DNA of 64,000 nucleotides from Candidatus Chisholmbacteria bacterium RIFCSPHIGHO2_01_FULL_52_32 (GTDB lineage Bacteria > Patescibacteriota > Microgenomatia > UBA1400 > Chisholmbacteraceae): NCBI GenBank assembly GCA_001816585.1, contig MHCJ01000003.1, forward strand, positions 778,681 through 842,680, read 5' to 3'. The notes under the pieces are model-generated. The model saw only the letters and a list, made by a program, of their open reading frames with translations. It was not told the origin of the DNA and made no database searches. Of the stretch, positions 21,020 through 40,064 are shown piece by piece; positions within the stretch are counted from its first letter, which is position 1, and each line of letters opens with the position of its first letter. The position numbers and the translations under genes were made by a program.

Positions 21020-21745
21020 CTAGACCTTGATGAGGGCAGCAGTAATCACAGCGCGACGAAGGTATGTTCCTGGCGGCGTACAGGTAATGAGGCGGAGATA
21101 TTCGTTGTCATACGATTGCTCAAGAACCGTGAGGTTATCGGGTTTTACCTCTGTTTTGTCAATTACCCGATAGGTATAGGAAATTCCATCGAATTTTATG
21201 AGCACTTCGTCTCCAATTTCCATCGTTGGGACAAGGGAAAAGATCGCCTTGTAATTCTTCGGATTGAAGAATTGGGGGAGAATTGAATGACCGAAGATAA
21301 TGGTTGCGCCCAGCTCTCCGGGAAGCGCTGAGCCTTTATATTGGACAAGATTTTTAGAAAGGTCTTCTCCGCCAATGGCTACCGTCGCGTCAATGATATT
21401 GAATTTCGGTATCGATAGCGTGTAGTGGGTAATTTTGGATTCCCTTGCCGTGTTCGGTTTCGCATTGGGAAACCAGTCTGTGGGATTCAGCAATTCCTGG
21501 CTCGCTGAGCCAAACTGATCGGGCTCGCTACCCTTTACAGGTATGGGGGTAACAAACTGTTGGGGCTTGAGACTTGGAGCGGTAAATACCTCATATGAAA
21601 CAATTGGCCAAATGACACTTCCTATGATCATCGTCCCGGCAACCATGAGCCCTTTTGCTGCTATCTTGGGTCGACTCTGTCTCCTATCGCTTGATCCTTG
21701 TGCTTCTGGCTCGATCCTTCGTTTGACGTACCGATAGGGTTTCAT
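21020..21745 (-). CDS. Sortase family transpeptidase
   Basis: N-terminal membrane anchor; catalytic His (IIFGHSI), Cys in LRLITCTPPGT (TLXTC) and Arg (YLRRAV). Confidence 0.8.
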   Translation of the reverse strand: MKPYRYVKRRIEPEAQGSSDRRQSRPKIAAKGLMVAGTMIIGSVIWPIVSYEVFTAPSLKPQQFVTPIPVKGSEPDQFGSASQELLNPTDWFPNAKPNTARESKITHYTLSIPKFNIIDATVAIGGEDLSKNLVQYKGSALPGELGATIIFGHSILPQFFNPKNYKAIFSLVPTMEIGDEVLIKFDGISYTYRVIDKTEVKPDNLTVLEQSYDNEYLRLITCTPPGTYLRRAVITAALIKV

Positions 21746-24024
21746 TCACGCTCTTCGACTTTCATTTCTATCGATATATTTTTGGTAAATCTCGGTATAT
21801 GTTTGAGACGGTCAGGAATTCCGCTAGGAGTAATCTGAATGTCTACCTTCACCACGTTCGGGAGTTTTTCTAAAAATTCTAGGGCAATATCCGGATATTT
21901 TCCTTTGAGGTCTTGTTTTAGCTGTTCCTCATCGATCTGCGGCACGAGAACCGCTTTGTACAATAGTGTTACTTGTCCTACGGCATCTTTCATATCAGCT
22001 GATCGAATTTCCGTTTGACTTTCCTCTTCCTGAAGCTCAAAGTCCTGGGGAGTTGCCTCGCTTATTGCCTGTCGTAGGATTTCCTTTAGGTCATCTTCTC
22101 TATAGGCAAGCGACTTTACTTTCAGCCTGATTGTCGCTTGTATCTTCTGTGCCTCATCTCCAACTTTTCCGCTCAATTCTTGGGATATTACTTCCGTTTC
22201 GGCTCCCTCGTTCAACACTCTGTTTCCTTCGTCCTCCTTTTCCTCTAGTTTTACTGCCCCTTCTGTCTTGAGTTCTGTCGTTAATTCGGCAAGCAGGGTC
22301 TCGATATCTTCGTCTGAAATTGCTGGAACTTCACGGCTCGTTCCTCCGGAAAATGGCGTTTCGTTTTTCGCATCGTATGAAGCCGTTGAGAAAGACTTTA
22401 GAGAAAAATCAGTATTGGTAGAGAGATTGTACTCGGATCCAATTTGCGAGGCAGTCGCTTTCCCTTTGGCTTTTCCGAACATCGTGGTGAGAGCCTCGTC
22501 ACTCTCCTTGGCACTTGCGGATGCGACCGTGACTGGACCGTCAAGGGTGAAAGCTAGGTTGTTCGGGCCCAACACTACTGTTCCTTCCGGAAATGTCTTG
22601 GTTGCCGTGGTCTTGTTATAGATCGTCACCTCACCCGCGGCTTTCTCTCCGACTACTTTGATTCCCGTCACTTCTTTTTCTTTGGAATTTTCCACTTCGA
22701 TCTCGACAATTTTCCCGGGAATGAGATTTTTGGCGCTTTCTATCTGCGTGCTTTCGGGGGAAATGGTAACGGTCAGCTCTTTCTCGAGCGTCCTTGGCTT
22801 AACATAGAGGATCAATCTGGCTTTGGGTATTGTCCAATAGCCATAGACGCTAAGACCCGTTAAAAGGCCGAAGAATCCGAGTGCAACGATCAGGGCGACT
22901 TTTATCCTTGTTGCGACCAACACATCCGGAAGAGATAGTTTGGGCATGCGGATTGGAAAAGGACGCGGGAGGAAGGCAAGGATGTGTTTCAGTCCGGTTC
23001 TTACATCTTGTCTCGCCTCCGGCTCTCCTCTCTGTTCTTCTTTCTGGGAGGTTTTCTTCGGAAAAAGAGGCTTTTCCTCATGTTCTTCCCTGTCTCGGGC
23101 GGTTGGTTGATACACATCGCTTTCAAGTTTAAACCCAATTTCATCTGCCTGAGCGATGATCTCGGGTTCCCCCTCCTTCTCTTTTTCCTCCGTTTCTTCT
23201 GCCTCCGTCTCCCGGGGTTCTTCTTGGACCTCTTCCCTGGTCTCGTCCTCTTCTTCGGTCATCTCAAACCCAAGTGCTTTGGCTGCTTCTGTCCCTCCAG
23301 CGATGGCGACCGCCTTGATCGTCACCTGGATGTCCAATATCTCTACCTTTGGAAAATGCAAGAACGGAAGTTTCTCAAGCCAATTATATGAGAGGAGATC
23401 CTGTCTTACGTCTTCCAAATTGAGCGAAGCGTTATAGAGAAGCATTCTTGAAGGGAAGTTCTCGGTCGTCTCGAACCGCGCCAGTCCTTCTTCCACATCC
23501 GCGCCGACATCTTCGCTCCGTGCGACTACCTCAGAGCCCACTACTTTTCCAAGATTGACAAGCGTCACCTGTATTTCTGACTGGTTAACGCGAACAAGGA
23601 TTGCTGTCGGCGGAGTTCCCTCTTCGCGTTTGAGGAGTTGAACGATCGCTTCCGTTGTGACCACAAATCCGATTGGTTTAAATCCGAATTTCTGGCTAAT
23701 TTGTCGAAGGGTCTTGGCGTGTTCCTTGACAATTTCTTCTCCCTCAACCCAACCTTCCTGAAGTCCAAAAATGACCTTGTTCGGCTCAGGTTTGATTTCT
23801 TCAAGTTTCTGAAGCGAATTATCGATCGCAACCAAAAGGCCCTCGTTTGAGCCCTTCTCGACCTCCCATTCCTCCGTTGTACCCACCTTTATAATTTTGG
23901 TTTGTCCGTCAATCACCTGCCAAACCGCGGTGGTTACCGTTTCACTCCCAATTTCAACTGCCAGGAATTGCTCTTGGGCTTTTTCTTTTGTGGTCAATTT
24001 TGAGAAAATGTCTTCCAATGCCAT
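21742..24024 (-). CDS. 760-aa bitopic membrane protein: compact FtsA/PilM-like actin-fold N-terminal domain, poly-acidic linker, TM helix, about 370-aa extracytoplasmic domain
   Basis: N-terminus FLAVEIGSETVTTAVWQV.. and later ..ILVRVNQSEIQVTLVNLGK.., ..IKAVAIAGGTEAAKALGF.. align with FtsA phosphate-1, phosphate-2 and adenosine motifs; E/D-rich stretch; TM IKVALIVALGFFGLLTGLSVYGYW; stop overlaps the sortase start (ATGA). Confidence 0.55.
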   Translation of the reverse strand: MALEDIFSKLTTKEKAQEQFLAVEIGSETVTTAVWQVIDGQTKIIKVGTTEEWEVEKGSNEGLLVAIDNSLQKLEEIKPEPNKVIFGLQEGWVEGEEIVKEHAKTLRQISQKFGFKPIGFVVTTEAIVQLLKREEGTPPTAILVRVNQSEIQVTLVNLGKVVGSEVVARSEDVGADVEEGLARFETTENFPSRMLLYNASLNLEDVRQDLLSYNWLEKLPFLHFPKVEILDIQVTIKAVAIAGGTEAAKALGFEMTEEEDETREEVQEEPRETEAEETEEKEKEGEPEIIAQADEIGFKLESDVYQPTARDREEHEEKPLFPKKTSQKEEQRGEPEARQDVRTGLKHILAFLPRPFPIRMPKLSLPDVLVATRIKVALIVALGFFGLLTGLSVYGYWTIPKARLILYVKPRTLEKELTVTISPESTQIESAKNLIPGKIVEIEVENSKEKEVTGIKVVGEKAAGEVTIYNKTTATKTFPEGTVVLGPNNLAFTLDGPVTVASASAKESDEALTTMFGKAKGKATASQIGSEYNLSTNTDFSLKSFSTASYDAKNETPFSGGTSREVPAISDEDIETLLAELTTELKTEGAVKLEEKEDEGNRVLNEGAETEVISQELSGKVGDEAQKIQATIRLKVKSLAYREDDLKEILRQAISEATPQDFELQEEESQTEIRSADMKDAVGQVTLLYKAVLVPQIDEEQLKQDLKGKYPDIALEFLEKLPNVVKVDIQITPSGIPDRLKHIPRFTKNISIEMKVEERE

Positions 24025-24120: not shown

Positions 24121-25959
24121 TTATGAATGGAGTTCTGCGTAGATTCTGCGGATGCCGCTTTGGACCGGTTGTTCCTTTATGATGCGTATTCCGCCGATTC
24201 CGCCGGTCGATTTGACGTGGGGTCCGCCACAAAATTCTTTACTGAACCATTCCTTTGCAGGATCTTTGCCGATTGTGTATACGGAAACCATCGCTGGGTA
24301 ATTTTCTTTAAAGAATGCCAAGGCTCCTGATTTGAGAGCTTTGTCTTTTTCCTCCACCGTTCTGTGCACGGGAAGGTCTTCTTTAATTTTTTGATTGACC
24401 ACGGTCTCGACCTTGGCGATTTCCTCTCCAGAGAGCTTTCTTGGGTGTGAGAAGTCGAACCGAAGGCGCTCGGCGGTGATGTTACTGCCTTCTTGGCGAA
24501 CATGATTCCCCAGTATTTCCCGTAAAGCCTTGTGGAGGAGGTGGGTAGCGGTGTGGAGTTTCACGGTTTCGTCCGATTTATCGGCAAGGCCGCCTTTGAA
24601 TAATCCTTTTGTGGCGGTACGGGAGGTTTCCTGATGTTGACGTTTCGCTTCCTCAAAGCCTTTACCGTCAACCATGACTCTTTTTTGTGCAGCAAGTTCC
24701 TTTACCAATTCTGGTGGATAGCCGTAGGTCTGGTATAGGTCGAATAATTCGGTTCCTGTGATTGTTCCTCCCCCGACTTTCGAAAGCACCTTTTTCATTC
24801 CTTGAGAAAGCGTTTTCTCGAATTTGGTGATTTCGATACGAATGGTTTCCAGGATGCGTCCTTGGTTTTCTCCGAGATTCGGGTCAACTGTTATATAGGA
24901 GCCGCAGAGCTTATCGATGACGAGGTTGATGCTATTGTCAAGATCGATATCGGCAATTTTGCTATGGAGTGCTGCTCTTCTGATGAGTCTTCTGAGGACA
25001 TATCCTTGGAGTTTATTTGCAGGCTCAAAGCCATCGCTCACCATAAACATCGCTGCCCGCAGGTGGTCTAAGATTATCCTGACTGCTCTTATGCTCTCCG
25101 GCGAGCTGACCACAACGACTTTTTCCAATGTTTTCCTTGCTTCTGTAAAGATATCAATATTGAATATGTCAGGTTGATTTTGGCTGGCGGATGCGATGCG
25201 TTCGAGGCCGCCGCCGAAATCGACGTTTTTTTGGGGTAATGGCTTAAACGAATCATCTGCCTGTTTTTCATACTGCATGAACACCGAGTTGCCGATCTCT
25301 ACAAACCGACCGCAATTACAATTGAGGTGGCAGACTCTGCCAAACTTTGGGTCATGGGAAGTTTGAAAATCATAGAAAACTTCGGAGTCCGGGCCCCCAA
25401 TCTCTCCCGGTGGCATGTTTGCCGGTATTCCGGAGCGTGACCACCAGTTTTTATCGGCTCCGTATGTATAGATTTTGATGGTGGGTTCGAATCCATCAGC
25501 GCCTTTTCTGGCGGGAGCATTGGTCTTTAAGACTTTTTTCCAAACGGTGACTGATTCTTCATCTTTTGGAACAACCGCATCTCCCTCAAACACCGTTACA
25601 TACAGCCTTTCCGGTTTTAAGCCAATTTCTTCGGTGAGGAACTCAAAAAACCAGGGAAGTTGCTCTTTCTTAAAATAATCTCCAAGGCTCCAGTTGCCGA
25701 GCATTTCGAAGAACGTAATATGGCGGTTGTCGCCGACCTCGTCGATGTCTTCTGAACGAAAGCAAGGTTGACTATCCATCAACCGCCTGCCCATCGGGTG
25801 GGGCTCTCCCTTTAAGAAGGGAACCAGCTGTTGCATGCCTGAACTTGTAAACAAGGTCGTTGGATCATTGGGAGGCACGAGGGGTGCTTTGGGGATTTCT
25901 CTATGTCCCCTCATTCCGAAGAACTTGATGAACCTGGTGCGAATTTCGTTTGCCTGCAT
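24121..25959 (-). CDS. alaS: Alanine--tRNA ligase, short form (612 aa; catalytic, tRNA-recognition and editing domains, no C-Ala domain)
   Basis: FTSSGMQ, editing-site HxxxH (HTATHLLH) and CGGPHV motifs. Confidence 0.95.
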   Translation of the reverse strand: MQANEIRTRFIKFFGMRGHREIPKAPLVPPNDPTTLFTSSGMQQLVPFLKGEPHPMGRRLMDSQPCFRSEDIDEVGDNRHITFFEMLGNWSLGDYFKKEQLPWFFEFLTEEIGLKPERLYVTVFEGDAVVPKDEESVTVWKKVLKTNAPARKGADGFEPTIKIYTYGADKNWWSRSGIPANMPPGEIGGPDSEVFYDFQTSHDPKFGRVCHLNCNCGRFVEIGNSVFMQYEKQADDSFKPLPQKNVDFGGGLERIASASQNQPDIFNIDIFTEARKTLEKVVVVSSPESIRAVRIILDHLRAAMFMVSDGFEPANKLQGYVLRRLIRRAALHSKIADIDLDNSINLVIDKLCGSYITVDPNLGENQGRILETIRIEITKFEKTLSQGMKKVLSKVGGGTITGTELFDLYQTYGYPPELVKELAAQKRVMVDGKGFEEAKRQHQETSRTATKGLFKGGLADKSDETVKLHTATHLLHKALREILGNHVRQEGSNITAERLRFDFSHPRKLSGEEIAKVETVVNQKIKEDLPVHRTVEEKDKALKSGALAFFKENYPAMVSVYTIGKDPAKEWFSKEFCGGPHVKSTGGIGGIRIIKEQPVQSGIRRIYAELHS

Positions 25960-32269: not shown

Positions 32270-33325
32270 TTACACCTTCGGGATGTATTCTGAAATGTTT
32301 GCCTCAGTAAGATGCAATGTTTTTGTTTCTCCTTCAACGATCTGCTTTGCCACCTTGCGGGTTATTCCCTGGATGTTACGCTGTAGAGTTCGGATTCCTG
32401 CATCGAATCCCAGGGGCCGCACAATTTTTGGCCAGAGTTCGTCATCGATTTGAAGGTTTTCTGCGGTAATCCCAGACTCCGCCATCGCTTCAGGTAAGAG
32501 GTATTGCCGTCCGATGTGAATCTTTTCGTCATCACTGTATGCCGGCATGCTAATCGGTTCAAGCCTATCCATGACGGCCGTTGCGATGTTGGTGGTGTTG
32601 TTCGCGGTGGTGACGAATAACGCTTCCGAGAGATCAAAGGGAAAGTCAATATAATGATCGACAAAGGCGTAATTCTGTTCCGGATCTAAAAGCTCCACGA
32701 GGACGCCCATGATGTCCGAGCGGGCTTCTTCGGAAACCCGATCAATTTCATCCAAGAGAATCACGGGGTTTTTCACCTTGGCTCGACGTAAGGCTTTGAT
32801 GACGTAACCCGGTTCCGCTTCCGGATACTGACGGGATTGCCCGCGCAGATCCCGCGCTGAACCCATTCCACCAAAGGGAATACGTGCAAATGGCCTTCCC
32901 GTTGCTTCCGCAATCGAATAGGCAAAGGTAGTCTTTCCGGTACCTACCAATCCCACCAGACAAAGAATCGGGGCATGGACCCGCTCTTCTTCTTTGTGTT
33001 TCTCGGATTTTAATTTTAATACCGCGAGGTATTCAATGATCCGTTCCTTCACCTCCTTTAATCCGAAGTGGTTCTTGTCAAAGATCTCGCGGGCTCTATT
33101 TAAATCCAGTACAGATTCGTTCTTTGCATTCCAGGGTAAATTGGCGACCCAGTCAATGTAATGGGTCACCCGATCATATTCGAGTGAATATCCTTCTGTC
33201 TGGGCAACCCTTTTCAGGCGATCCAGTTGTTTCTCTATTTCGAGGGAAAGCTCTTTGGGAAGCTCAGCTTTTTCGATTCTTATCCGAAGAGACTCAATTT
33301 CCTTTGCGAGCGGCTCCTCAACCAT
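32270..33325 (-). CDS. Lon-family AAA+ ATPase module without LAN N-domain and without S16 peptidase domain
   Basis: ..HYIDWVANLPWNAKNE..DHFGLKEVKERIIEYLAV.. then Walker A GLVGTGKTT and Walker B ILLDEIDR; ends (..LTEANISEYIPKV) exactly at the Lon AAA+/protease boundary; next gene is UDG. Confidence 0.7.
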   Translation of the reverse strand: MVEEPLAKEIESLRIRIEKAELPKELSLEIEKQLDRLKRVAQTEGYSLEYDRVTHYIDWVANLPWNAKNESVLDLNRAREIFDKNHFGLKEVKERIIEYLAVLKLKSEKHKEEERVHAPILCLVGLVGTGKTTFAYSIAEATGRPFARIPFGGMGSARDLRGQSRQYPEAEPGYVIKALRRAKVKNPVILLDEIDRVSEEARSDIMGVLVELLDPEQNYAFVDHYIDFPFDLSEALFVTTANNTTNIATAVMDRLEPISMPAYSDDEKIHIGRQYLLPEAMAESGITAENLQIDDELWPKIVRPLGFDAGIRTLQRNIQGITRKVAKQIVEGETKTLHLTEANISEYIPKV

Positions 33326-33392
33326 CAGGTCCTCCAATGGGAATGAATGAAGTCATTATATCAGAGCTTTCAGTGATTAACTGGGGGTAGAT

Positions 33393-35672
33393 TTAGCGCC
33401 GATGAGGGTGAAAGGGCTTTCCGTGTTGACGGCCCTGAGGATGCTGCCACTGTTCTTTGGGGGAATTAAATCCCGGTTTTCTTTCGATTCCGGGGATACT
33501 TAAGTTTAATCTTCCCAGCTCGTCTATCTCTGCCACCTTCACCCTGAGCTTATCGCCGACTGACACCAGTTGGTTTGGATCGGAGACATATTCCTGCGAC
33601 ATCTTTGAGACATGAACCAATCCTTCTTTTCCCGGAAGGATTTCGACAAAAACTCCAAACGGTTGGACCCTTTTTACCACTCCATCAAATTCCTCTCCAA
33701 CCTGCACTTTTCGGGTGAGGCTCTCTATCCACTCTACTGCTTTCTTTATACCTTCGGCATCTGTTCCCGAGATGGTCACCGATCCATCGTCTTCAACATC
33801 AACGGCGGCCCCGGTTTCTGCAATGATTTTTCGAATCATCTTTCCTCCCGGACCGATGACCTCGCCGATTTGCTCCGGCGAGATCTTTAAAATTTCGACT
33901 CTCGGGGCATACTTCGACAATTGAGCTCGAGGGGATGGAAGAATGGAAAGTATTTTCTCAAGGATGAAGAGTCTCCCTTGCCTGGCTTGCTCGATCGCCT
34001 CGGCCAGGAGCTTTTCTGTAATCCCTTTCATTTTGACGTCCATTTGAATTGCTGTGATACCATCCTTGGTCCCTGCTATTTTAAAATCCATATCTCCAAT
34101 CTGATCCTCAAGGCCCTGGATGTCTGAGAGAATCGCGTATCTCTGTTTCTCCCCCATTCTCCCTTCGTAGATCAGACCCATTGCAATTCCTGCCACCGGT
34201 TTCTTCAACGGCACGCCAGCATCCATGAGAGAGAGGGTTGAGCCACAGACCGAAGCCATACTGGTTGATCCGTTACTTGAAAGGATCTCGGAGACAACCC
34301 GGATGGTGTAGGGAAATTCGTCCTCAGGAGGTATCATCGGTTCCAAAGCCCGTTCTGCGAGGGCTCCGTGCCCGATTTCTCTCCTTGAAGGCCAGCCCAG
34401 TCTCCCTACCTCTCCCACGCTAAAGGGGGGCATGTAGTAGTGATGCATGTAGCGTTTCGTACCCTCGCCCTCCATGGTTTCAATCCATTGCTCCAAGGAT
34501 GGCGCCGCAAGAGTAGTTATGGTTAAAGCCTGGGTTGTTCCTCTTTTAAACATTGCGGATCCGTGCGTGCGGGGGAGAAGGCTGACGTCGCCCGTGATTG
34601 GCCTTATTTCGTTCGTCTTCCTTCCATCGGGACGTTTCCCACTTCCAAGAATCATTTCTCTGGTTTTGTGCTTGACAAGCTTTACCAGCACGTCTTTTAC
34701 TTGCGTTTTACTCAATTCGGGTTCCTTTTCTGTGATCTGAAGCGTTACGGCATCGAAATCTGGTTCTCCCTGCTGTCCTTCTGGTTCCGTCAGCGTCTTT
34801 ACCAATTCCTTTGCATGCTGAGTCACTTTTTTCACAACTTCTGGATCTTCTTTCTTTTTCGGAATGGCTTGCTTTTTCTTCCCTACTTCTTTTACGAGCT
34901 TGTTTATCTCTTGAATGATTTTATTGATTTCGAGTCTGGCCGCCTCGAAAGCGCTTAGCAGGGTTTTCTCCGGTATCTCGTTGGCCCCTGCCTCCACCAT
35001 CATGATAGAGTCTTCTGTGGCGGAAACGACCAGATCAAGATCAGAGTATTCCCGTTCAAGGTGGGTGGGGTTTATGACAAAGTCCCCCTGGTTTGGTTTC
35101 TCTCCTTTTATGGGGTTTACTGGGCTTTGCTCGTCCTTCATTTCCTGATGAACCGTCTCAGGGTGTTGGGGGTTGGTGTTTTTCCCTTTGGGAATAAAGC
35201 CAACACGGACCGCGGCAAGTGGTCCGTCCCAGGGAATGTCGGAGATTGCCAGGGCTGCTGAAGTGGTAATGATTCCTAGGATGTCCGGATCGTTTTCGGC
35301 GTCCACAGATAGCACGGTGAGGATAACCTGGGTTTCGGCTGCATAGTTTTCCGGGAACAACGGGCGGATGCCTCGATCGACGAGCCTTGCATTGAGAATT
35401 GCATCGTCACTCGGCCTGCCCTCTCTCTTTACCCAGCGAGAGCCTTTAATCCTGCCTCCAGCGTAGAGTTTCTCCTGATATTCAACCGAGAGCGGGAAAT
35501 AACCCAGATCTTCTCTGATTCCTCCCGAAACCACGGTTGCCAAGATCATGGTATCACCATACCTCCCAAGCACTGCAGCGTTTGCCTGCTCGGCAAACCT
35601 TCCTACTTCAAGTTCGAGGGTTTTTCCTCCGATCTCAATTGTTTGTCGTACCACTTTATCCTGGCGTTCCAT
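33393..35672 (-). CDS. pnp: Polyribonucleotide nucleotidyltransferase (PNPase), with C-terminal extension
   Basis: Two RNase PH domains, KH, S1; ORF-track start 35678 is TTG, ATG at 35672 (MERQDKVV..). Confidence 0.95.
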   Translation of the reverse strand: MERQDKVVRQTIEIGGKTLELEVGRFAEQANAAVLGRYGDTMILATVVSGGIREDLGYFPLSVEYQEKLYAGGRIKGSRWVKREGRPSDDAILNARLVDRGIRPLFPENYAAETQVILTVLSVDAENDPDILGIITTSAALAISDIPWDGPLAAVRVGFIPKGKNTNPQHPETVHQEMKDEQSPVNPIKGEKPNQGDFVINPTHLEREYSDLDLVVSATEDSIMMVEAGANEIPEKTLLSAFEAARLEINKIIQEINKLVKEVGKKKQAIPKKKEDPEVVKKVTQHAKELVKTLTEPEGQQGEPDFDAVTLQITEKEPELSKTQVKDVLVKLVKHKTREMILGSGKRPDGRKTNEIRPITGDVSLLPRTHGSAMFKRGTTQALTITTLAAPSLEQWIETMEGEGTKRYMHHYYMPPFSVGEVGRLGWPSRREIGHGALAERALEPMIPPEDEFPYTIRVVSEILSSNGSTSMASVCGSTLSLMDAGVPLKKPVAGIAMGLIYEGRMGEKQRYAILSDIQGLEDQIGDMDFKIAGTKDGITAIQMDVKMKGITEKLLAEAIEQARQGRLFILEKILSILPSPRAQLSKYAPRVEILKISPEQIGEVIGPGGKMIRKIIAETGAAVDVEDDGSVTISGTDAEGIKKAVEWIESLTRKVQVGEEFDGVVKRVQPFGVFVEILPGKEGLVHVSKMSQEYVSDPNQLVSVGDKLRVKVAEIDELGRLNLSIPGIERKPGFNSPKEQWQHPQGRQHGKPFHPHRR

Positions 35673-35742
35673 AATCAATCCTGGGGAAGCTTTCTCTAGA
35701 GGAGGAAAGCTTGTTATACAGTTCTTTCTTTTTTACGGAGCT

Positions 35743-36012
35743 TTACTTGGAAAGTCCGAGTTTGTTTACGATCTCTTTGTACCGAGCTTCGTCCTTTTTG
35801 AGTAAGTAATGTAACAACCGTCGTCTCTTGGAAACCATCTTTAAGAGTCCCCTTCTTGAATGGTTATCTTTGGGGTGATCCTTGAGATGTCCAGTGAGTT
35901 GGCCGATGCTCTCTGATAGAAGTGCTACCTGAACTTCTGGGGAGCCCGTATCTCCCTTTCCGGTAGCGAACTTCTGAATGATTTTCTTTTTCTGATCTGC
36001 GGTGAGTGCCAT
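35743..36012 (-). CDS. rpsO: 30S ribosomal protein S15
   Basis: 89 aa canonical S15 (..[13 protein letters not shown]..). Confidence 0.95.
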
Positions 36013-36060: not shown

Positions 36061-37194
36061 TCAGTCCACTTTCGATGAACCTTTATAGATTTTCGGCTTA
36101 TTAAGCCAGTCTGGCTGGGGTTTTACACTCTGCCAACTTCGACCATCCTTTATCCCCTGAATTCCCGGGGTTCCCGGCTGGGGATTTCGTGTTGCTCCTT
36201 CTCCATGGGTTGTCTGGGTTATCGGTTGTCTGAATTGTCTGGATTGATCTCCCGTATCCCTTGTCGGTTCCGGAAGAATACTCGAAGGGGTGGAGATGTC
36301 GCTCAAATTTAGTTCTGGTTCAGCTAAGCTTGTGGGAGCAATCCCTGGGGGGGCCTGTGGCACTGGTCCCTTTCCTTGAGGGACAAATCTTCCTTGGTCG
36401 CTTCGATCTTGAGAAAAAGCTGGAATTCCTCCTTGAACCCACGGTCTTGACGCGGGCATTGGTTGTGTGCGCCTGGCTCCGGAACGGAGAAGCTCTGCAA
36501 CTGTTTCAAAGGTCTCTGGTCCGGCAAATGGTGCCTGGAAATTCTGGGTTTGTGCTTCGATACCTTTGAGTAGGTTTCCCGCAATGTCCACATCCATCCG
36601 TAAGCCAAGCTGCTTTATCAGATTGAAGATCAGCTCGCAGATCGATCCTTGAGACGACTCCACGACGTTCACTTGGCCGAATTTGGTGTTTGCCTGCGAT
36701 TTGTCGATATTGATGACCGCGGCTTTGTTGAATGCTTCTCGTTCCTTCTCATAGAGCTCCCCCAAACCCTCCAGTCTCTGGGCACCAATCACGACTATCA
36801 CTTCTGCCTGAATGCCTTCGTAGGAAAATTCGACGCTTTTGGTATCCAGAGGAGGATATCCTGATTTCGGTTGGATGACGAGGTTAAATTTCCCGGCGTC
36901 GACGTTATAGCTTACCTTTTCAATGGAATCTTCCTTGTAGTCGAAGGCAATGGTGAGATTCCGGTTGCCGACTTTATCGGAGATCTGATCGATTCCTACC
37001 AGACGGTTGTACTCTACCCGCATCTTCGTCGGGCAGCCGATCACGACGCTTTTCCCCGTTTCCTTCAATGCCAGATACAGTCCCAGCCCGGCGGCCGTAG
37101 TATCGAGGCTTGGATTTCCAGGGATGAGAACAAAAATGCTCTTGGCACTGTCAAGAGCTTTCTTGATTTCCTCAAGATGTTCTTGGGCAATCAT
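36061..37194 (-). CDS. DHH-family (NrnA-like) homolog with degenerate catalytic motifs plus Pro/Gln/Gly-rich low-complexity C-terminal tail
   Basis: N-terminal about 230 aa align to NrnA, but motif I DxD reads SLDTT and DHH reads FDY; the last about 140 aa are low-complexity P/Q/G-rich; ATGA overlap with the infB stop. Confidence 0.45.
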   Translation of the reverse strand: MIAQEHLEEIKKALDSAKSIFVLIPGNPSLDTTAAGLGLYLALKETGKSVVIGCPTKMRVEYNRLVGIDQISDKVGNRNLTIAFDYKEDSIEKVSYNVDAGKFNLVIQPKSGYPPLDTKSVEFSYEGIQAEVIVVIGAQRLEGLGELYEKEREAFNKAAVINIDKSQANTKFGQVNVVESSQGSICELIFNLIKQLGLRMDVDIAGNLLKGIEAQTQNFQAPFAGPETFETVAELLRSGARRTQPMPASRPWVQGGIPAFSQDRSDQGRFVPQGKGPVPQAPPGIAPTSLAEPELNLSDISTPSSILPEPTRDTGDQSRQFRQPITQTTHGEGATRNPQPGTPGIQGIKDGRSWQSVKPQPDWLNKPKIYKGSSKVD

Positions 37195-38753
37195 GTTTCC
37201 TCAATTTTTCTATAGGATATTATCACATCTCCGAGTTTAAAGTCAACTTGGGGCTTGAGGATGATCCCGCACTCGGTCCCCTGTTTGGCACTCTCAATCT
37301 CTTCTTTGCCACGGTGAAGTGATTTGATCTTGGCATCCGATACCCGTTCTTCTCCTCGCTTCAGATGTATTGGTGAGATTTTTTTTATCTCACCGGTTTT
37401 TACCTTACATCCGGCAATGTGTTCCCCGTGAATTTCAAACTGGGCGATGATGACCGCCTCTCCGACGATCTCTTCATCGATGGTCGGTTCAAGCATTTTT
37501 AAGACTTGCTTTTCCAAATCCTCAAAGAGTTTGTAGATGATATTAAAGGTTTTGATCGTCACTTTCTCTGCCTCGGCGAGTTTCTTTGCCGAAGGTGTCA
37601 CTTCGGTATTGAAGGCATAGATTTTTGCTTCTGTGGCGGACGCTAAAAGCACGTCCGATTCGTTTACTTCTCCTATCCCAGACCCAACAATTTCCACTTC
37701 CTCGCTTAAGTTGGTCGTAATCGCCTCCAGTGTTCCTGCGATGTCTGTTTTCAAAATCACGTTCACCGTTTGTTTTTCCTTTTGTTCCTCCCCTTCGGCT
37801 GTCTCATCCTCCTTTGCTTCCTTGTTTGTCAGCGCTTGTTTTGGCTGCTCTTTTTCAGTCTTTACGATTTCCAGTTTTTTTTCTTCCCCTCTGATGGTCT
37901 GTCCAACGCCGGGAAGTTTCTTCCATCCCAACACTTCCACTGGAGTTGCGGGGCCGGCTGTCTCGACTGGCTTTCCATCCGCATCGGTAAGGGCTTTTAT
38001 CGTTATGGTTTGATCGCCGAGGGTCATTTTTGAACCAACCTTCAGTGTTCCATTTTTGACCAGCAAGGTAGCAAGGGGGCCTTTCCTTCTGTCTTGACGC
38101 GTTTCTATCACAACTACATCAAGCTCCCCTTGAGGATCGGCGCGGAGATCCTCAAGATCGGAAACAAGGAGGATCATTTCTAGAAGGTCACCTATCCGTT
38201 CCCCCGTTTTTGCGGATACCTCAACTAGAGGGATTTTCCCGCCGTAGCTTTCTACTACCACGTCTTCTTCCGCCAGTTGCCCTTTGACGCGTTCCACGTT
38301 GGCTTCTGGAAGATCGATCTTACTCACTGCAACCAAGAAGGGCACCTTGGCAGCGCGAATGTGCTGCAGGGCCTCCCGCGTCTGTGGTTTTACCCCATCG
38401 TTTGCGGCAATGACCAAAACGACGATATCGGTCACTTGAGCTCCGTGGGCTCGCATCTTGGAAAACGCGGCGTGCCCGGGAGTGTCAATGAAGGTTATCC
38501 TTCTCCCTTTGTATTGAATTTGATAGGCACCGATACTTTGGGTTATTCCTCCGTGTTCAGAGGCCACGACATTCGTCTTTCGGATCGCGTCCAACAGTGT
38601 CGTCTTCCCATGGTCAACATGGCCCATGAAGGTTACGATGGGTGGCCGCCTATTTTTCGGAGAAATGGAGGTCGATTCTGGCTTCCTTTTCGGGGGAGGG
38701 GACGATTGGCTTGATTGCGGTTTGGTTGTAGTGGTTTTCGATCTGGTTTTCAT
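37191..38753 (-). CDS. infB: Translation initiation factor IF-2 (short form, minimal N-terminal region)
   Basis: [12 protein letters not shown].. G-domain, 520 aa, K/E-rich insert before domain III. Confidence 0.95.
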
Positions 38754-38894: not shown

Positions 38895-40064
38895 TTATTG
38901 GGCGAGTCTCTCCTTGATTTCGGCGATTGCCTTGGGGCCAAGACCTTTGATGTGTTTTAGTTCTTCTTCTTTCCTCTCTTTGAGTGATTCAAGGGAAGTA
39001 ATCCCAGCATCCACCAGGACTTTTCGAACCCTGGCTGTGAGTTTTAAGGAATCAATTTCATATTCCTCTTCGCCGGTCACCGAGATCGCTTTCTCCCCTG
39101 ATTCTCCTTGAATGTCGATTTTATATCCAGTGAGTTTAGCCGCTAAGCGCACGTTTTGGCCTCCCCTGCCGATAGCTAGTGAGAGTTGATCGTCTGGAAC
39201 CGTGACGGTTGCTTTTCTGCCATCCTTTTCTATCTCAACCTTGATTCCATCGGCCGGAGCGAGGGCTTGGGCAATAAAGGTCTGGGGATTGTCCGCATAT
39301 TGGATGATGTCAATCTTTTCTCCCGCCAGTTCGTTGATGACCGCTTGAACCCGAACCCCGCGTTGTCCCACACATGAACCAACCGGGTCGACACCTTCTT
39401 GAGTTGACGTAACCGCAATTTTTGTACGGTTTCCTGGTTCTCTGGCAATGGCCTTGATTTCTACTGCTCCGGAGGTGACTTCGGGAACCTCGCGCCGGAA
39501 GAGTTCTTCAATAAGCCCGGGGTGGGCTCGAGAGACAATGATAGCCTTTCCTTTCAGGGTCTCCCTAATATCGGCGATGTAGAACGCCAATCGCTGATTT
39601 AAACGATAGCGCTCGGTCCTGACTTGCTCTTGGGGCGGCATCACCCCTTGGCCTCGGCCAATGTCCACAATAATGTTCGGTCCGTCAAATCGGAGGACCA
39701 TGCCACTCAAGATTGTCTTCACCTTCTTGGAGTACTCGGCGATGATGGCATCTTTTTCCGCTTCGCGAACACGCTGTAGGATGACCTGTTTTGCGGTTTG
39801 AGCGGCGATGCGGCCAAATCCTGGGGGAGTAACGTCTTCCATTTTTCCCTTTTCGCCTTTTTTAAAGATGCTGGCCGCGCCGGTTAACGGATCTATCTCC
39901 ACCTCGTACTCGATCTCTTCCTCAAGACCATAGTCTTTCCGATAGGCGGCGAGGATTGCCACTTCGATGGTTTCAAGCACGACTTCCGGTTCGATTCCAC
40001 GTTCGGCGCAGATCTGGTTTAAGGCCGATGAGAACTCGGTTCTGGCTGCGGTTTGTGTTGCCAT
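38895..40064 (-). CDS. nusA: Transcription termination/antitermination factor NusA
   Basis: NTD, S1 and KH domains (..GSCVGQRGVRVQAV.., ..LAIGRGGQNVRLA..). Confidence 0.9.
   Translation of the reverse strand: MATQTAARTEFSSALNQICAERGIEPEVVLETIEVAILAAYRKDYGLEEEIEYEVEIDPLTGAASIFKKGEKGKMEDVTPPGFGRIAAQTAKQVILQRVREAEKDAIIAEYSKKVKTILSGMVLRFDGPNIIVDIGRGQGVMPPQEQVRTERYRLNQRLAFYIADIRETLKGKAIIVSRAHPGLIEELFRREVPEVTSGAVEIKAIAREPGNRTKIAVTSTQEGVDPVGSCVGQRGVRVQAVINELAGEKIDIIQYADNPQTFIAQALAPADGIKVEIEKDGRKATVTVPDDQLSLAIGRGGQNVRLAAKLTGYKIDIQGESGEKAISVTGEEEYEIDSLKLTARVRKVLVDAGITSLESLKERKEEELKHIKGLGPKAIAEIKERLAQ

Follow-up and report, generated by a model that had tools for sequence, protein, structure and literature searches.

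In the nusA-infB operon of Escherichia coli, rbfA lies immediately downstream of infB. What is the role of a gene that stands in this place where rbfA is missing? The question was raised by a 64-kb window of DNA (the whole stretch that was analysed; coordinates are window positions, except those given after the handle of a related locus, such as L050, which are positions in that locus) from Candidatus Chisholmbacteria, a lineage within the Microgenomates of the candidate phyla radiation (CPR, also Patescibacteria). Here infB is followed directly by a gene, called X in the following, which encodes a protein of 377 amino acids (aa). The protein has the DHH fold and has lost catalytic residues as well as the DHHA1 domain of its relatives. 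A family-specific insert and a C-terminal peptide are conserved throughout its family, the peptide is under selection at the protein level, and the linkage of X to infB is strict. Judged from its sequence, X is very probably non-catalytic and acts by binding. The features of X discussed below are as follows.

36061-37194, minus strand: gene X, a 377-aa DHH-only pseudo-nanoRNase (open reading frame (ORF) and translation; the stop codon, 36061-36063, is included)
36460-37194, minus strand: DHH-like folded core, aa 1-245 (AlphaFold2, Foldseek and family profile)
37102-37122, minus strand: degenerate motif I, P25-G-N-P-S29-L-D31 against H-I-M-P-D-G-D of TM1595 (alignments and family counts)
36811-36978, minus strand: family-specific insert, aa 73-128, with four predicted beta strands (AlphaFold2 and profile alignment)
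36784-36786, minus strand: motif II, with G137 replacing the metal-binding Asp (alignment to TM1595)
36697-36705, minus strand: true motif III, D164-K165-S166 replacing D-H-H (INIDKSQANTKFG of X aligned to VVIDHHSTNTNFG of TM1595)
36538-36564, minus strand: degenerate motif IV, G211-I-E-A-Q215-T-Q-N-F against G-I-A-T-D-T-G-F-F (alignments to TM1595)
36115-36459, minus strand: disordered linker rich in P, Q, G and S, aa 246-360 (predicted local distance difference test score (pLDDT) of 44-63, and composition)
36064-36114, minus strand: conserved C-terminal peptide, aa 361-377, PDWLNKPKIYKGSSKVD-COOH (family alignment)

Fold and descent of X

The first 245 residues of X were modelled by AlphaFold2 with a pLDDT above 90. 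When the model was compared with the PDB by Foldseek, it matched TM1595 of Thermotoga maritima (E 1.5e-16), Rv2837c (E 1.7e-13) and the NrnA homologue of Mycobacterium smegmatis (E about 1e-13), and the top 50 significant matches were DHH-family proteins only. A phmmer search of X against PDB sequences likewise found TM1595 (E 3e-7), ahead of other NrnA-type proteins. With a profile of 120 family members, whose alignment with the query reaches down to about 37% identity to X, the match to TM1595 was strengthened to E 2e-19. The Pfam DHH family (PF01368) matched aa 20-212 of X with E 5.4e-5 and 23.9 bits, under the gathering cut-off of 28.1, and it matched 71 of the 120 members at E <= 0.01. 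NCBIfam gave only negligible partial DHH-related matches to X. The similarity of the N-terminal region to NrnA-type DHH proteins, which a preliminary description of the locus had claimed, is thus real by profile, by Foldseek and, below threshold, by Pfam.

The DHHA1 domain (PF02272), which in NrnA-type enzymes carries the GGGH substrate-binding motif, gave no Pfam match in X or in any of the 120 family members, and the profile alignment to TM1595 stopped at residue ~194, which is the end of the DHH domain. NrnA-type enzymes hydrolyse nanoRNA, pAp or linear dinucleotides. Their two catalytic metals are bound by the DHH motif together with acidic residues close to it, and substrate recognition falls to DHHA1 (PMC9779919). 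By its fold X belongs to the DHH superfamily, but it has neither the metal motifs nor the DHHA1 domain that define the NrnA type, and its sequence speaks against an activity of this kind. The genes of the mycobacterial NrnA' clade are neighbours of infB, rbfA and nusA (PMC4081065). The fold of X, its nearest relatives and its operon position suggest that it descends from such an NrnA' of the infB operon.

Loss of the catalytic motifs

In motif I of X, the His is changed to Pro25 and the first Asp to Ser29, so that S29-L-D31 stands where DxD is expected, as had been noted before. The second Asp (D31) is retained and is invariant across the family. The preliminary description had also read F84-D-Y (aa 84-86) as the remnant of the DHH motif, and this was wrong. 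The alignments placed these residues inside the ~55-aa insert, which canonical DHH domains lack, and the reading of FDY as a degenerate DHH is ruled out. The true site is D164-K-S.

To count the catalytic residues over the family, 333 non-redundant members were aligned and the eight canonical residues were scored, leniently for motif IV. No member had all eight, while seven were present in 2 members, six in 8, and three or fewer in 259. The DHH tripeptide was intact in 4 of the 333 members and DxD in 18. The metal-binding position of motif II was Gly in 250 members and Asp in 63, and at position 215 of motif IV most members have Ala, Gly or Gln. Decay was least advanced in a subclade typified by genomes labelled Gottesmanbacteria, which keeps five to seven of the eight residues with the signature H-T-D / D / D-R-H, and the clade of the window itself was among the most decayed. 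Catalytic degeneration is therefore family-wide but graded, not uniform. As to whether the orthologues are uniformly inactive, a check that had been proposed earlier, every member lacks at least one of the eight residues and the extent of the decay differs. The earlier idea of a catalytically degenerate NrnA-like protein in a retained gene is supported, the orthologues being degenerate too.

The least-decayed individual forms, with an intact DHH tripeptide, the Asp of motif II and the His of motif I, are a minority, among them the related loci and proteins L050 (7983-8897), L042 and P0216. They were still without DHHA1, and the insert and the C-terminal motif were present in them. By record title, the metagenome-assembled genome (MAG) of L050 is an "uncultured Gammaproteobacteria" (a generic title) and L042 belongs to the "Patescibacteria group."

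Conserved insert and C-terminal peptide

The ~55-aa insert lies between motifs I and II, where 56 profile positions stood opposite 5 residues of TM1595. Its four strands were predicted by AlphaFold2 at residues 79-83, 91-99, 102-109 and 122-127. It is the best-conserved segment of X and contains F84-D-Y; I91, K93, V94, S95, Y96, F103 and G127 were invariant in 120 members, and many further positions were more than 90% conserved. No homologues of the insert were detected in Pfam or among PDB sequences. The insert is likely to form a binding surface.

The tail of X (aa 246-377, 132 aa) has a high content of P, G, S and Q, and disorder is predicted for it. It had been described as a low-complexity P/Q/G-rich tail with a disorder prediction proposed as a check, and the composition and the low pLDDT of the linker agree with this. 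The description did not hold for the last ~17 residues, PDWLNKPKIYKGSSKVD, which form a conserved motif. Across the family, the linker varies from 10 to 188 aa (median 54) and contains 19% P and 13% Q, and its sequence is not conserved. The consensus of the peptide is P-x-P-[DE]-W-[LF]-x-P-K-[IV]-[YF]-K-[GS]-x-[TS]-x-[VLI]-COOH. It was matched strictly in 286 of the 333 members, with W, P and K invariant and the Trp 13-14 residues from the C-terminus. Near-variants were found in most of the remaining members, bringing the motif to about 95% of the family overall. The copy in the window (DWLNKPKIY) contains a single additional residue, N365 or K366, when compared with the consensus DWLKPKIYKG.

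The codons of the peptide vary synonymously, with all six codons used for Leu, four for Pro and three for Ile. What is under selection is therefore the peptide itself rather than an RNA element. In addition, the peptide was retained in loci where 1-3 kb of unrelated genes lie between X and rpsO. A search of the whole 64-kb window with Rfam, on both strands, gave no family at the gathering score, and no S15/rpsO leader element was found upstream of rpsO. Conservation of the tail as a leader or promoter RNA element of rpsO is excluded by the synonymous codons, the loci with a distant rpsO and the lack of an Rfam match in the window.

The occurrence of the peptide outside X was also examined. Neither the 84 related loci nor the window contained further copies, and all 120 metagenomic matches to DW[LF]KPKI[YF]KG fell in ORFs of the X family (108 clearly, 12 at contig ends). 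Viral contigs gave no match, and neither PDB sequences nor Pfam contained a homologue. A sharing of the peptide with other proteins, as expected for the ligand of a common hub, found no support: no copies beyond the X family occurred in the loci, the window, or the metagenomic or viral contigs. In the AlphaFold2 models of full-length X and of a member with a 10-residue linker, the peptide had a pLDDT of ~50 and was undocked on the core, so docking on its own core was supported by neither model. That the peptide stays undocked even with a 10-residue linker weakly suggests, as far as the models go, an external partner. The isoelectric point (pI) was 5.3 (median) for the acidic core and 9.5 for the basic peptide.

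Linkage of X to infB and to rpsO-pnp

The order nusA-infB-X was found in all 84 loci taken from a genome collection and homologue look-ups. An independent set of metagenomes gave 54 loci that reach far enough upstream for this comparison, and in all of them infB directly precedes X. The infB stop and the X start are separated by a median of 14 nucleotides (nt); of 83 loci, 64 have a spacing of at most 50 nt and 18 have an overlap of the two genes. Most loci continued with rpsO-pnp, a gene for a Lon-like AAA protein, (udg) and rnj. The gap between X and rpsO exceeded 600 nt in 20 of 79 loci, several of which contained whole inserted genes. X is tied most tightly to infB, because infB is always adjacent while the gaps between X and rpsO vary.

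In the window, the co-directional run is nusA-infB-X-rpsO-pnp, followed by a Lon-like AAA+ protein, a UDG-family protein, RNase J and ftsK. The neighbouring features are as follows.

38895-40064, minus strand: nusA (Pfam NusA_N and KH_5)
37191-38753, minus strand: infB, encoding a minimal 520-aa IF2 (Pfam GTP_EFTU, EF-G_D2 and IF-2)
37191-37194, minus strand: overlap of the infB stop and the X start, ATGA (sequence)
35743-36012, minus strand: rpsO (S15), beginning 48 nt downstream of X (Pfam Ribosomal_S15, E 3.9e-34)
33393-35678, minus strand: pnp (PNPase; its own ORF sequence and the Pfam matches of its counterparts)

The preliminary description had given both this gene cluster and the ATGA overlap correctly; NusA, IF2 and S15 were identified by Pfam, and the overlap is at 37191-37194. 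The counterparts of pnp in related loci, assigned by synteny, had Pfam matches to RNase_PH, KH and S1.

Several observations were made on the neighbours. The G domain of the IF2 in the window begins at about residue 38 and is preceded by a short N-terminus rich in S, P and K; this IF2 is without the N-terminal domains of E. coli IF2. The Lon-like protein (355 aa, 32270-33337, minus strand) consists of the Lon-type AAA+ module alone (Pfam AAA and Lon_lid), without the N-terminal domain and without the protease domain of Lon, and the position of its gene shortly after pnp is conserved in most of the related loci. Small gene pairs lie between X and rpsO in L045 (8878-10245), L050 (9415-9877), L078 (8938-9400) and L056 (8929-9422); by eye only, they resemble toxin-antitoxin modules (HicA/HicB-like, PIN/AbrB-like, nucleotidyltransferase). 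S15 carries an N-terminal extension of 25-55 aa rich in Lys, Ala, Thr and Val in L024, L047, L049-L051, L056, L072, L078 and L084, several of them from Gottesmanbacteria-labelled genomes, and the S15 of the window (89 aa) has no such extension.

Farther away in the window, an ORF of 760 aa (21742-24024, minus strand) had no Pfam match at E <= 0.001 and adjoins a sortase-domain gene (21020-21745). The alanyl-tRNA synthetase (AlaRS) at 24121-25959, minus strand, is 612 aa long, which is short for a bacterial AlaRS. Judged by this length, it may be without the C-terminal region that bears a DHHA1-type domain in canonical AlaRS.

Absence of rbfA from the locus

No rbfA or truB lies between infB and rpsO, and X follows infB directly. 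Their absence from this slot, pointed out in the preliminary description, extends to the rest of the 64-kb window as far as it was searched: neither gene was found by tblastn (a weak search, with E. coli queries) or by Pfam among small and medium ORFs. X itself has no RbfA signature in Pfam or NCBIfam, where only DHH-related matches appeared, and its fold is DHH. The position that X takes here is the rbfA slot of the mycobacterial infB operon (PMC4081065). CPR bacteria have about half of the usual set of ribosome-biogenesis factors (PMC12641178). According to the same study, 98% of non-CPR genomes have rbfA, as against 47% of CPR genomes, and rbfA, der and era are lost in Microgenomatia (PMC12641178).

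Size and labels of the X family

The X protein has a counterpart with 100% identity, annotated as hypothetical, in a MAG of Candidatus Chisholmbacteria; this counterpart is seen on 21 contigs. A word-indexed search returned 293 relatives, and an exhaustive profile search yielded 1,242 clusters at 50% identity (E <= 1e-30). The named source genomes were Chisholm-, Gottesman-, Beckwith-, Shapiro- and Woesebacteria and the "Microgenomates group." A motif-based scan of genomes confirmed X in 98 species; the patterns used for it recover only about 35% of an unbiased set of family representatives. Many MAG records with a Microgenomates-type locus (L008, L010, L012-L016 and others) had the titles "uncultured Gammaproteobacteria," "Pseudomonadales" or "Candidatus Bathyarchaeia." Their nusA-infB-X-rpsO-pnp synteny suggests that such MAG titles are placeholders or mistaken taxonomy.

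Members of the family are labelled as hypothetical by NCBI and as "nanoRNase/pAp phosphatase (c-di-AMP/oligoRNAs hydrolase)" by the Joint Genome Institute (JGI). In full-text literature, no paper that joins NrnA with Patescibacteria and no description of the X family was found, and no curated family covers X. As far as sequences can tell, X represents an uncharacterised and widespread family of pseudo-nanoRNases, strictly coupled to IF2, whose insert is novel and whose C-terminal motif is tethered. The JGI label is likely to be functionally wrong for this family, in which case metabolic and RNA-turnover reconstructions may credit these organisms with an activity they lack. The family also offers a view of the emergence of a pseudoenzyme, in which DHHA1 is gone from every tested member and catalytic decay depends on the clade, while the insert and the peptide stay constant.

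Possible function of X

Loss of DHHA1 in all members tested and uneven decay of the catalytic residues, set against a fixed insert and peptide, indicate that the selected function of X is independent of catalysis. Its most likely seat is the surface of the insert together with the tethered peptide, an arrangement that would suit an adaptor. We tentatively propose that X is a non-catalytic tethered adaptor which arose from the nanoRNase of the infB operon (NrnA') and acts in 30S maturation or initiation; this reading falls short of an even chance. The ancestor would have been of the NrnA' type, as Rv2837c and MSMEG_2630 are, and TM1595 is the closest solved structure. The binuclear metal site would have been dismantled and the substrate-binding DHHA1 domain deleted, leaving an acidic DHH-like core that would expose the near-invariant four-stranded beta insert as a binding surface. 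The Pro/Gln-rich disordered linker would be a flexible tether, free to drift in length and sequence, by which the basic C-terminal peptide ([DE]W[LF]xPK[IV][YF]KGxTxV-COOH) could dock onto an external partner. Through translational coupling X would be co-produced with IF2, and its site of action would be the machinery of 30S maturation and translation initiation in a class reported to be without RbfA, Der and Era. An adaptor role, an external partner and the location of this partner in the 30S/IF2 system are inferred from these observations. Three things favour the IF2/30S sphere: the junction with infB is strict and frequently an overlap, the rbfA slot is occupied, and a loss of rbfA, der and era has been reported for Microgenomatia. 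X probably belongs to 30S maturation or initiation, and less so to RNA decay. The structural or RNA-binding role that had been suggested earlier is plausible in its structural part, while RNA binding is unsupported for an acidic core.

The conserved cluster in most loci, X-rpsO-pnp-(Lon-like AAA)-(udg)-rnj, would also suit a scaffold for RNA decay, that is, a former nanoRNase that worked downstream of PNPase and RNase J and now recruits one or both of them by its C-terminal peptide. The ancestor was an enzyme that finishes RNA degradation, and a disordered linker with a short terminal motif and an invariant Trp is in keeping with such a scaffold. However, the link to pnp is looser than that to infB, with more than 600 nt from X to rpsO-pnp in 20 of 79 loci, often with unrelated genes between, and we consider this explanation unlikely. 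It is very unlikely that X has remained a ligand-binding or weakly catalytic protein, whose remodelled site binds metal, a nucleotide or short RNA for sensing or sequestering, or is even hydrolytic in some lineages. Polar residues near the former active site are conserved (D31 and N162 invariant; D164, N169 and T216 nearly so), one subclade keeps H25, D31, D137, D164 and H166, and three members have an intact DHH tripeptide together with the Asp of motif II. Nevertheless, five to seven of the eight residues of the two-metal site are missing in most members, the substrate-holding DHHA1 is missing in 120 of 120, and conservation is strongest in the insert and the tail and not in the pocket. From the sub-threshold Pfam match and the low-complexity appearance of the tail, one might suspect that X is a pseudogene in decay, an ORF called wrongly, or an error of sequencing or assembly. 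This has next to no probability, given an identical protein on 21 contigs, over 1,200 clusters (50% identity, E <= 1e-30), residues invariant in 120 members, synonymous variation in the tail codons, strict synteny and a confidently predicted fold; sequencing error and pseudogene were refuted on these grounds.

Several points weigh against the proposed adaptor in the 30S/IF2 system. Operon position is only circumstantial for function, and the acidic core (pI about 5.3) makes direct binding of rRNA by the core unlikely. The AlphaFold2 models are monomers, so the peptide could dock in trans within a homo-oligomer. With six or seven of the eight catalytic residues kept in a few members, residual metal binding is possible in some lineages. 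The confirmation of 98 species means that X may cover Microgenomatia only in part. Moreover, WWE3 and Dojkabacteria have also been reported to be without rbfA (PMC12641178), and among the 80 genome loci kept, none was from records labelled WWE3 or Dojkabacteria. X is therefore not a general substitute for RbfA.

A more specific version of the proposal is that X is a ribosome-biogenesis or initiation factor specific to Microgenomatia: the neighbouring NrnA' gene would have been exapted after the loss of RbfA (with Der, Era, RimM and RimP), and the insert and the peptide would have arisen as contacts to the 30S subunit or IF2, so that a pseudoenzyme would be the non-orthologous replacement of an assembly factor that is almost universal. 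This is decidedly speculative, and we would call it quite unlikely as stated. X is nonetheless a concrete candidate for how Microgenomatia without RbfA compensate, as a large conserved family that is coupled to IF2 and located in the rbfA slot, and its interest would be greater if the link to ribosome biogenesis in such CPR bacteria were true.

Comparison with known systems

The systems most similar to X are the NrnA' and other DHH-DHHA1 phosphodiesterases (Rv2837c/CnpB, MSMEG_2630 and TM1595), which have the same fold and gave the best matches in both sequence and structure. X is located in the neighbourhood of infB and nusA, as are the genes of the NrnA' clade, whereas rbfA is missing from the X loci. 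Unlike these enzymes, X has lost DHHA1 and the metal and catalytic residues, and it has gained the ~55-aa beta insert, the long disordered linker and the conserved C-terminal peptide.

Cdc45 and the inactivated archaeal RecJ/GAN homologues are scaffolds of the CMG helicase, and Cdc45 makes its contacts through an inserted domain. X shares with them the loss of catalytic residues under purifying selection, and a protein-binding role for X can be suggested by analogy with these inactive DHH scaffolds (PMC3307487, PMC4873980). In contrast to X, those proteins keep a DHHA1-like domain, function in archaeal and eukaryotic DNA replication, and have nothing similar to the insert or the tail of X, so the likeness is an analogy only. 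X is not of the Cdc45/RecJ lineage, as no Foldseek match to it ranked above the NrnA-type proteins.

RbfA (30S ribosome-binding factor A) binds 30S and pre-30S subunits and takes part in maturing the 5' end of 16S rRNA. RbfA and X have in common the slot directly downstream of infB, while their folds are unrelated (KH-like in RbfA, DHH alpha/beta in X), and a functional replacement of RbfA by X is hypothetical. The C-terminal half of RNase E is natively disordered and contains short partner-binding microdomains, with the PNPase site at the extreme C-terminus. Although there is no sequence relationship and X is without the catalytic domain of RNase E, both proteins combine a disordered region of biased composition with a short conserved terminal motif in a context of RNA metabolism.

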